A stretch of 64,000 bases of DNA from assembly GCA_963823335.1 (NCBI GenBank), contig CAWGLD010000008.1, forward strand, positions 32,001 through 96,000, read 5' to 3'. The DNA is from an uncultured delta proteobacterium (lineage in GTDB: Bacteria > Desulfobacterota > Desulfobacteria > Desulfobacterales > B30-G6). A program made the translations under genes and the position numbers. How positions within the stretch are numbered: position 1 is the stretch's first letter; each line of letters starts with the position of its first letter. The notes under the pieces are model-generated. The model saw only the letters and a program-made list of their open reading frames with translations, was not told where the DNA came from and did no database searches. This document shows positions 8,171-29,596 of the stretch, piece by piece.

Positions 8171-8403
8171 GGATCTTCTCCCAATTATTTGGGAGAAAGG
8201 GTTCAAGGAGTCCAGGATTCAAGGGTTCAAGTGTTTGTTTTCCAGGGATTTGATCATCGCTTTTAGCATTCTCTCTACATCCCCACCTTTAACTCTTTAT
8301 AATTCTTAAGCATTTAGCTGATGCCTCACTTCATCTCACTCGAAACCTGGACCCCTGGAATCCTTGAATCCTTAATTTGGATCAACTCTTTGGGAGATGA
8401 TCC
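8171..8403. mobile_element. Non-autonomous TIR element, copy 1, with a four-helix-bundle gene remnant
   Basis: Ends GGATCTTCTCCCAA / TTGGGAGATGATCC; flanks gactttta / tattttta (6/8 match). Minus strand 8313-8219 encodes MLKNYKELKV fused out of frame to GDVERMLKAMIKSLENKHLNP*. Homologous to 28911-29269. Confidence 0.75.
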
Positions 8404-28198: not shown

Positions 28199-28801
28199 TC
28201 AGATCAGGGCTTTGCTGTTGCGATATTTTTCGACAAGACGGATGAGTTTTTCGATAGCTGTAGAGAGATCGTCATTGACGATCACATGACGGTAAATCGA
28301 TATTCTGGCGATCTCTTTTTTGGCATTTCTCAGACGCTTTTCAATGGTCTGGGGATCTTCTGTCCCCCGATTTATCAGTCGTTGTTTTAAAATTTCCAGC
28401 GAGGGTGCCATGATGAAAATGGTAACGGCATCAGGGTATCGTTCCAGAATCTGCAGTGTTCCCTGGACATCGATGTCGAGTAGAATATCATGACCGCCTG
28501 CAAGCGCCTTTTCCAGATTTTTTGCGGAGGTACCGTAATAATGACCGTGAACCTCCGCCCACTCCGCCCAGCAACCTTTGTCGCGCATGTCGAGGAATTC
28601 ATTCTCGTCTGTGAAATGATAGTCGATACCGTCTTTTTCACCCTGACGTGGTTTTCGTGTGGTGTGAGAAACAGAGTACTGAATGTCGGCATGGGCACCC
28701 TGCAGCGCCCTGCAGAGCGTGCTTTTCCCAGCCCCGGACGGTGCAGAAACCACAAATAGATGTCCCTTGCGATAACCCGTCCCAGTCCTTTCTGATACCA
28801 T
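28199..28801 (-). CDS. gmk: Guanylate kinase
   Basis: SAPSGAGKST, SHTTR.PR.GE, YYGT and DIDVQG motifs; start 28801 inferred. Confidence 0.95.
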   Translation of the reverse strand: MVSERTGTGYRKGHLFVVSAPSGAGKSTLCRALQGAHADIQYSVSHTTRKPRQGEKDGIDYHFTDENEFLDMRDKGCWAEWAEVHGHYYGTSAKNLEKALAGGHDILLDIDVQGTLQILERYPDAVTIFIMAPSLEILKQRLINRGTEDPQTIEKRLRNAKKEIARISIYRHVIVNDDLSTAIEKLIRLVEKYRNSKALI

Positions 28802-28910
28802 GTTTTCCACCTGATACCCACTCCTCCAGCAACTACCCGGACCCAAAGGACCCAGCCCAGATTAACCCTAAAAGGGTTCACTTTTGGAAATATTCGGTCC
28901 TTAAAAATAC

Positions 28911-29269
28911 GGCTCTTCTCCCAATTAGTTGGGAGAAAGGGTTCTAGGAGTCGAGGATTCAAGGATCCAAGTGTTTGTTTTCCAGGGATTTGATTAACGC
29001 TTTCAGCATTCTATCTCTATGGTCGTTTTTCTCCCGTATCCCTCGGCGATATTCGATGGTATGGAAACAGCAGATCTTCTGATTTGGGAGGTCAAACCAT
29101 ATATTTCATCCTTTGGAAAACCTTTCGTGATTTTATAAATATGCAAACAAAGGGCGTACGATTTCTGCCAAACGTTTAACTCTTTATAATTTTTAAGCAT
29201 ATCACTTGAATCCTGGAATCCTGGACTCCTTGAATCCTTCTTTTAGATCAACTCTTTTGGAGATGATCC
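28911..29269. mobile_element. Non-autonomous TIR element, copy 2, with 8-bp target duplication AAAAATAC
   Basis: AAAAATAC|GGCTCTTCTCCCAA ... TTTGGAGATGATCC|AAAAATAC; inserted between remA and gmk. Confidence 0.85.
28959..29200 (-). pseudogene. Four-helix-bundle protein (23S rRNA IVP / S23 / Avd-like family), internally deleted
   Basis: MLKNYKELNVWQKS...FPKDEIYGLTSQIRRSAVSIPSNIAEGYGRKTT is the family signature. It then jumps out of frame to the C-terminal helix RMLKALIKSLENKHLDP*. Confidence 0.85.
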
Positions 29270-29344
29270 AAAAATACTAAATTGAAATATCGAAATGCGA
29301 AATAAAAGCGGCAACGCCGCGTCAGATAAATTCGTGCAACGAAT

Positions 29345-29596
29345 TTATTCTTCTTTTAGCGTCGCATAGCGCTGGGAGATCGTTTCCGCCTGTATGGCGG
29401 ACAGGACAATGTGATTGCTGTCCATGATAATAACTGCCCGGGTTCTGCGACCATGAGTCGCATCGATCAGTCGCCGGTCTTCCTTGGCCTCGTCTTTGAG
29501 TCGCTTCATGGGAGCTGAATTGGGCGCCACAATACTCACAACCCTTTCCGCCACTACCGTGTTGCCAAATCCGATGTTCAATAAAGCTTTTTCCAT
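29345..29596 (-). CDS. remA: DUF370 / RemA-family protein
   Basis: [25 protein letters not shown] and LSAIQ.ET motifs. Confidence 0.92.

Follow-up and report, generated by a model that had tools for sequence, protein, structure and literature searches.

The window analysed here, a stretch of 64,000 nucleotides, contains on its minus strand a run of genes consisting of yicC, remA, gmk and a SpoU-type methylase, in which remA and gmk are separated by a spacer of 498 bp. The question raised by this locus is what fills the spacer, by which route it arrived and what it carries. The spacer harbours an element of 359 bp, hereafter copy 2, and a shorter relative, copy 1, resides elsewhere in the window (Table 1). 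Copy 2 very probably belongs to the ISL3 family of transposons, as a non-autonomous and decayed member: a mobile insertion cassette turning into a MITE. The vehicle is of a known kind (MITE or mobile insertion cassette) and the cargo, a four-helix-bundle gene enclosed by arrays of short words, is unusual.

Copy 2 is flanked by two identical octamers, and its terminal repeats, GGCTCTTCTCCCAA at the left end and GGATCATCTCCAAA at the right end (reverse complement), match at 11 of 14 positions, the right repeat being degenerate. Between these repeats, two arms of octamer words, 86% complementary over 37 nt, bracket the gene; the left arm contains the stop codon of the full-length gene, and the right arm is situated, read in the sense of the gene, immediately upstream of the ATG. 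Copy 1 aligns with copy 2 at both ends, the two differing through internal deletions. Its terminal repeats, GGATCTTCTCCCAA and GGATCATCTCCCAA, match at 13 of 14 positions, the hairpin TTCTCCCAA-N4-TTGGGAGAA recurs at 8176-8184/8189-8197 with 9/9 complementary bases, and its array arms (8197-8233 and 8337-8373) are 81% complementary. The flanks of copy 1, GACTTTTA and TATTTTTA, match at 6 of 8 positions, and what remains of its gene, approximately ten codons from the N-terminal end and the last helix, is out of frame. The initial annotation had described homologous ends for 28911-29269 and 8171-8403, terminal inverted repeats of about 14 bp, a sub-terminal hairpin, inverted octamer arrays around the gene, a duplication that is perfect in copy 2 and 6/8 in copy 1, and a single gene with different internal deletions; all of these features were recovered, with 62 codons plus the last helix retained in copy 2.

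No Rfam match was found within the copy 2 element, and a sub-threshold one lies outside it (RF03015, 29292-29351, 18.6 bits against a cut-off of 42.7, E = 0.51). Just after remA, at 29304-29344, there is a palindromic unit of approximately 40 bp, consisting of a GCGGCGTTGCCGC hairpin and AATTCGTGCAACGAATT, which occurs at no fewer than 40 places in the genome, carries a terminator-like flag and looks REP-type.

Table 1. Features of the element at remA-gmk, its neighbours and related copies. Positions are those of the window, except where a contig of the genome (G000) is named.
Feature	Position	Strand	Remark
gmk (guanylate kinase, PF00625)	28199-28846	-	downstream neighbour, same strand as cargo gene
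Left target-site duplication AAAAATAC	28903-28910	.	identical to 29270-29277
Left ISL3-type inverted repeat GGCTCTTCTCCCAATTAGTTGGGAGAA	28911-28937	+	inner part is the hairpin 28916-28937
Hairpin, 9-bp stem and 4-nt loop, TTCTCCCAA-N4-TTGGGAGAA	28916-28924/28929-28937		9/9 complementary
Left octamer-array arm AGGGTTCT AGGAGTCG AGGATTCA AGGATCCA AGTG	28937-28973	+	37 nt
Last-helix remnant, out of frame, with stop codon	28959-29012	-	alignment to intact copy G000:C2:127685-128173
Truncated four-helix-bundle ORF, 65 aa	29003-29200	-	PF05635 and TIGR02436 profile matches
Right octamer-array arm	29203-29239	+	complementary to 28937-28973
Right inverted repeat, inward GGATCATCTCCAAAAGAGTTGATC, with its own small hairpin	29246-29269	-	end alignment, fold
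Right target-site duplication AAAAATAC	29270-29277	.	8/8 match to left copy
remA (RemA-like, PF04025)	29345-29596	-	upstream neighbour, same strand as cargo gene
Copy 1, 233 bp, both inverted repeats and both arrays	8171-8403	+	end alignment to copy 2
Family B copies	G000:C2:12833-13524, C4:31203-31895, C4:218226-218917, C4:341847-342538		692/693 bp
Family B derivative	G000:C7:100288-100873		586 bp

The genome (G000; 11 contigs, 93.87% complete) contains many further copies of the family represented by copies 1 and 2 (family A). End matches of at least 60 bits number 38 for the left end and 27 for the right, and 23 end matches pair within 3 kb, giving elements of 140-489 bp. As a chance control, the whole genome was scanned with loose settings for end-like 11-mers lying 50-800 bp apart in inverted orientation, which gave 211 pairs. 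The 8-bp flanks were identical in 13 of these pairs and matched at 7/8 in four, and all 17 are recognisable family members; flanks of 6/8 were found in four more, three of them family members and the fourth an unrelated pair, the best of its kind, while the other 190 did not exceed 5/8. The 13 perfectly duplicated 8-mers, including that of copy 2, are 92% A+T. Additional copies and duplications across the genome, as implied by the initial annotation, are thus present, and the family has the features of MITEs, being short and transposase-free, with inverted repeats, a target duplication and many copies including deletion derivatives. The near-identical copies indicate recent transposition activity.

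The family also extends to other genomes. When one genome of each species was scanned for the exact pattern, at least 118 matched stretches were obtained, of which 80 were analysed. Among the matches listed, these loci belong mostly to MAGs labelled Desulfobacterales, Desulfobacteraceae, Desulfatiglandales or Deltaproteobacteria, with single MAGs labelled Thermodesulfovibrionia, Aminicenantes and Bacteroidetes. Within these 80 of at least 118 stretches, an octamer array immediately follows the repeat in 69 loci, a four-helix-bundle profile match is present in 25, the gene is intact in two, and a transposase within 900 bp was found in none. A simple end-finder could score 68 of the 80 loci and, among the matches listed, detected 8/8 flanks in nine, 7/8 flanks in 13 and none in 46.

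At two insertion sites, congeneric genomes have a precise empty allele. G001 has one TATTTAC where G000:C7:353943-354259 has GTATTTAC on both flanks, the empty allele reading ...CGTGCTTCC TATTTAC TTTTTCAGCC... against GTATTTAC-element-GTATTTAC. Likewise, G004 has one ATAAAAA where an intact copy, G000:C2:127685-128173, has ATAAAAAA on both flanks (...AAAAAATAAAAAGATTTAC... against ATAAAAAA-element-ATAAAAAA). At the site orthologous to this intact copy, G005 holds an end-less fragment of the family-A gene (L237). An unrelated repeat of approximately 172 bp at G000:C2:127494-127667 (L222:895-1068) has its own inverted ends, GCCCTCTCAAAATAG...CTATTCTGAGAAGGC, and many copies in the genus; it is missing from the orthologous G007 site and is probably another MITE family.

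At remA-gmk itself, the element is absent from G004, G006 and G001, in which the two genes are 17-56 bp apart and which are also devoid of approximately 140 bp of spacer around the element. The initial annotation had anticipated an allele of this spacer with a single AAAAATAC in relatives, and this exact empty site was not found in G001, G004, G006 or G007; it is not seen because the remainder of the G000 spacer is likewise missing from G004, G006 and G001. In G007 (L036), the remA-gmk spacer is occupied by approximately 210 bp of other DNA, one piece of which resembles the interior of a 692-bp family described below. Given this other DNA, the spacer seems to be a repeated insertion target. 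Contigs of three DNA runs break at the repeat, with no joint of 28910 to 29278, and the right junction of copy 2 is bridged in these runs by one contig only (X4, 29228-29334).

The truncated ORF of copy 2 matches PF05635 with 84.7 bits (cut-off 33.8) over profile positions 1-55 of 106, and TIGR02436 with 77.4 bits (cut-off 24). Full-length cargo, for which the initial annotation had suggested a search, is present in one copy of 489 bp, the above-mentioned C2:127685-128173, whose 123-aa gene has its stop codon inside the array and whose protein scores 135.3 bits against PF05635 (cut-off 33.8) and 134.3 bits against TIGR02436. Over 359 aligned positions, copy 2 has four differences from this intact copy, and it has lost 130 bp between two CTCTAT repeats, with the junction at approximately 29012-29015; the first 62 of its 65 aa match the intact protein, after which there is a frameshift. 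Contig matches of full-length relatives end loose at 29012 and 29015. The deletion is common to copy 2, C2:43150 (identical junction) and C4:557921 (near-identical junction), and each of the three shows 3-8 differences from the intact copy. As the same deletion is found at three sites, the broken-gene form has itself been copied; the alternative, in which the 130-bp deletion recurs at the microhomology, is less likely. The many copies, the duplications, the empty sites in congeners and the three copies sharing one deletion together bear out the initial proposal of a transposase-free mobile element that survives as a MITE after decay of its ORF.

An intact passenger gene, by which a mobile insertion cassette is recognised, is present in the sister copy C2:127685-128173 (123 aa) and in the 692-bp family (131 aa), and in copy 2 this gene is frameshifted. 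Between the two intact genes from other genomes, dN is 0.074 and dS 0.66, and this pair, the one usable for dN/dS as the others are saturated, indicates that the intact cargo genes are under purifying selection.

For the origin of the ends, ISL3 transposases were surveyed in 121 genomes of the same order, of which 24 have such genes, and 30 loci were examined. In five of the 30 loci, distributed over four genomes (G080, G024, G053 and G118), these ends are found on both sides of an ISL3 transposase gene. The consensus of the ends flanking these PF01610/NF033550 genes is GGTTCTTCTCC(C/A/G)A(A/T)TTAGT.GGAG, the transposase-bearing elements measure 1334-1356 bp, and perfect AT-rich duplications of 8 bp are present at four of the five loci, L053 being without one. 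In ISfinder, ISL3 termini typically begin with GGCTCTT and are accompanied by 8-bp repeats. G080 has three copies of its element, which measures 1334 bp and encodes a protein of 402 aa. This protein matches PF01610 and PF13542, the DDE domain and the helix-turn-helix domain found in ISL3 transposases, as well as NF033550 (320 bits, cut-off 180), and its zinc-ribbon domain PF14690 scores 22.9 bits, just under the cut-off of 25.5 bits. The same element also has an open frame of 413 aa antisense to the transposase gene (L073:1525-2766, +).

The 26-bp inverted repeat of the G080 element is partly palindromic and contains the hairpin that the initial annotation had called sub-terminal, which is therefore the inner half of the ISL3 repeat. 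The left end of copy 2 agrees with this repeat at 18 of the first 19 bases, followed by an extra T and then GGGAG. A transposase-bearing copy with the exact family-A repeat GGTTCTTCTCCCAATTAGTTGGGAGAA was not found among the 30 loci examined, the closest being that of G080, which departs from it by an indel of one base and a single other difference in 27 bp. In the assembly of G000 (93.87% complete, 11 contigs) there are no PF01610 matches, and the element is therefore non-autonomous. Within the same family, four of 15 genomes have ISL3 matches and none of the five loci examined shows these ends. Since no matching transposase was found in the G000 assembly or at the loci examined in its family, we infer the mobilising enzyme from other families of the order; in G000 it may have been lost, left unassembled or be located on another replicon. 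The transposase with the same terminal repeats that the initial annotation had hoped for thus exists as ISL3 in G080, G024, G053 and G118, and none is present in the G000 assembly. A full IS with these ends was not found in G000 either, as the sole inverted hairpin pair at a distance of 1.3 kb (C5:325487-326823) encloses no transposase. The two solo ISL3-repeat hairpins of this pair, at C5:325487-325517 and 326795-326823, enclose exbD-/tonB-like genes.

A second ISL3-framed family (family B) consists of four copies of 692/693 bp and a 586-bp derivative, with 0-2 differences and with perfect 8-bp duplications in all copies. Its left end is identical to the ISL3 inverted repeat of G024 at 24 of 24 bases. 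The arrays of this family are composed of GGGATC hexamers, not octamers, two CCCYGCAGCAAGCTRCGGGG hairpins follow the gene, and the intact 131-aa PF05635 gene has no BLASTP similarity to family A (E = 2.7). In G053, mosaics (L093, L095 and L096) combine an octamer-array family-A cassette, its protein 70% identical to that of family A, with a frame of two family-B-type ends. The four-helix-bundle elements of G053 measure 544, 586 and 525 bp and have 8/8 duplications, and this genome also holds an ISL3 copy with near-identical ends. Further, six additional PF05635 genes in G000 are accompanied by arrays of other words and have no ISL3 ends, and the protein of one of them, at C7:178049, is 62% identical to that of family A. 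The transposase-bearing ISL3 copies are without arrays, which means that the arrays belong to the cassette and not to the transposon. There have been several joinings of cassette and ISL3 frame, at least three in number (A in the A-frame, B in the B-frame and A in a B-type frame).

These joinings are among the observations that would suit a different reading, in which the four-helix-bundle protein is the mobility factor of the element, with the ISL3-like ends as its recognition sites, or else a helper of the transposase. The idea is an old one for ORF-bearing rRNA intervening sequences (Ralph and McClelland 1993, quoted in the discussion of PMC4990558), the purifying selection seen in the one usable pair of intact genes (dN 0.074, dS 0.66) is in keeping with it, and the intact copies in G000 could act in trans. 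Nevertheless, transposase-bearing ISL3 elements with the same ends have no such gene and still generate 8-bp duplications, the broken-gene form is present at three sites, and the gene is intact in only two of the 80 loci analysed from other genomes (out of at least 118 stretches). Moreover, the six other PF05635 genes of G000 have arrays but lack ISL3 ends, and a protein of approximately 120 aa that has neither a DDE motif nor a nuclease motif is no transposase. We consider a mobility role of the protein improbable.

Marginally less probable still is that the ISL3 frame is incidental and that a cassette with its own insertion mechanism repeatedly entered ISL3-derived MITEs. Copies move as whole units between the inverted repeats with the duplication outside, 69 of 80 ends (80 of at least 118 stretches) lead into the same array with the register unchanged, and no cassette-specific junction or target was seen; all this weighs against such independent entry, even though six G000 sites hold cassettes that have other array words and lack ISL3 ends, the 62%-identical protein at C7:178049 being among them and its arrays quite different, and one cassette type is found in two kinds of frame.

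Duplications of 8 bp are generated by IS1595 and IS256 family elements, some of which have GG termini, and G000 has a transposase gene of each family (IS1595, C5:481160-482137, interrupted; IS256, C1:101723-102817). The parentage that the initial annotation had sought in these families is nonetheless contradicted by the ends, since the IS1595-family copy ends in GGACCTAYAAACAA, unlike these ends, no end-like motif flanks the IS256-family copy, and it is with ISL3 elements that the ends agree, over 24-26 bp, so that a MITE derived from either family is highly improbable. The IS1595-family element (C5:481124-482226), the transposase of which is TGA-interrupted, appears inserted in another transposase-like gene.

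The preferred reading, a decayed ISL3-type transposon carrying a foreign cassette, places the element next to several known systems. It shares with ISL3 insertion sequences (PF01610/NF033550) the repeats starting with GG, which match over 24-26 bp, the 8-bp duplications and the AT-rich targets, whereas it has no transposase gene, measures 140-692 bp instead of about 1.33-1.36 kb, contains a foreign cassette and, in family A, has a degenerate right repeat. With MITEs and mobile insertion cassettes (MICs), for example the IS231-derived MIC231 of Bacillus cereus, it has in common the IS ends without transposase, a passenger in full-length copies, multi-copy derivatives with internal deletions and target duplications. 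The passenger, however, is a four-helix-bundle gene in a tandem-word stem and not a metabolic or resistance gene. The initial annotation had regarded the element as a candidate for an undescribed system; as a vehicle, it is an ordinary MITE or mobile insertion cassette, and what was not found in print is the cargo, full-text literature searches having yielded no paper linking PF05635/S23p genes to MITEs or ISL3.

A close parallel to the cassette is provided by ORF-bearing 23S intervening sequences, as in Coxiella burnetii and Leptospira, which share the PF05635 protein family: there too, the gene occupies the loop of a long terminal stem, and short repeats in tandem immediately precede its start codon (PMC4990558). 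In the intervening sequence of Coxiella burnetii 23S helix 45, GACAGAT heptamers precede a decaying S23p ORF and RNase III excision is documented, and the hypotheses still offered for such sequences are a 'remnant of transposition' and a mobile element with a mobility-aiding ORF (PMC4990558). By contrast, the element described here is situated between protein genes and has transposon ends and a target duplication, and the excision documented for Coxiella (PMC4990558) has its counterpart here in a predicted stem. A CPR rRNA-insertion preprint does no more than list the domain. The single 23S rRNA gene of G000 (C5:36999-40034) has no such ends. At 3036 bp against a model of 2925 positions, this gene has approximately 110 extra bases. 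Similarity to Avd, the DGR accessory protein, is confined to the four-helix-bundle fold family and weak profile matches, both of which are below threshold (bAvd, 26.5 bits against a cut-off of 40; NF033474, 23.8 against 80), and there is no reverse transcriptase or template repeat nearby.

On the gene strand, copy 2 has a predicted folding energy of -118 kcal/mol, compared with -79.6 +/- 4.75 kcal/mol for shuffled sequences (z = -8.1, 0 of 100 as good), and the predicted structure consists of an end hairpin, a stem of approximately 37 bp around the ORF and another end hairpin; for copy 1, z is -5.5. Covariation of the arms was not detected in the 35 elements of family A, where the mean self score (33.2) was no better than the non-self score (34.1), and complementarity of the arms is specific only between families using different words. 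Based on crude ORF calls, seven of 35 elements were unscorable, and in 23 of the other 28 the cargo gene has the orientation of the upstream ORF (p = 0.0009); on the same crude calls, this holds for 17 of 22 when transposon-bounded elements are taken alone (p = 0.017). In copy 2, the cargo gene is co-oriented with both remA and gmk. Such orientation fits read-through transcription. A promoter scan found no promoter-like site in the element. The contigs of metatranscriptome X10, which may include DNA and cannot show RNA ends, contain pieces of gmk, remA and the repeat family, and one 609-nt contig of a full-length relative, possibly DNA, runs into a different flank.

The history of the locus can be sketched as follows. 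An ISL3 DDE transposase, presumably acting in trans, would recognise inverted repeats of approximately 27 bp (GGNTCTTCTCCCAATTAGTTGGGAGAA) and insert the element at AT-rich sites by an 8-bp staggered cut, and copy 2 landed in the remA-gmk spacer, duplicating AAAAATAC. The interior is a non-IS cassette of 'IVS type', in which a PF05635 gene is enclosed by two complementary arrays of octamer words. A 130-bp frameshifting deletion has broken the gene of copy 2, and the deleted form has been copied to at least two other sites. When transcribed in the sense of remA and gmk, putatively by read-through from the upstream host gene, the arrays would fold into a stem of approximately 37 bp around the gene, and this stem might be cut by RNase III, by analogy with 23S rRNA intervening sequences.

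A broader possibility, which we put forward tentatively and regard as rather unlikely in its full extent, is that miniature frames of the ISL3 type are a general vehicle spreading IVS-type cassettes in Desulfobacterales-like genomes, that the ORF-bearing intervening sequences of rRNA were delivered in this way or by similar transposons, and that stem and gene form a selected module. The notion of a selected module stems from the persistence of the array words, which are recognisable between lineages with saturated synonymous sites, and from the insertions being mostly in the sense of the upstream gene. If true, stem and gene together might act as an RNA that excises itself and so renders insertions within operons tolerable. 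The spread of ORF-bearing intervening sequences and their four-helix-bundle genes is a long-standing question, and this element family represents direct sequence evidence for one route by which such genes spread, namely as a cassette between ISL3 ends, with 8-bp duplications, empty sites in sister species and decay into MITEs. For annotation, the family accounts for many of the short fragments labelled 'four helix bundle protein' and of the structured operon spacers in genomes of the sulfate-reducer type.
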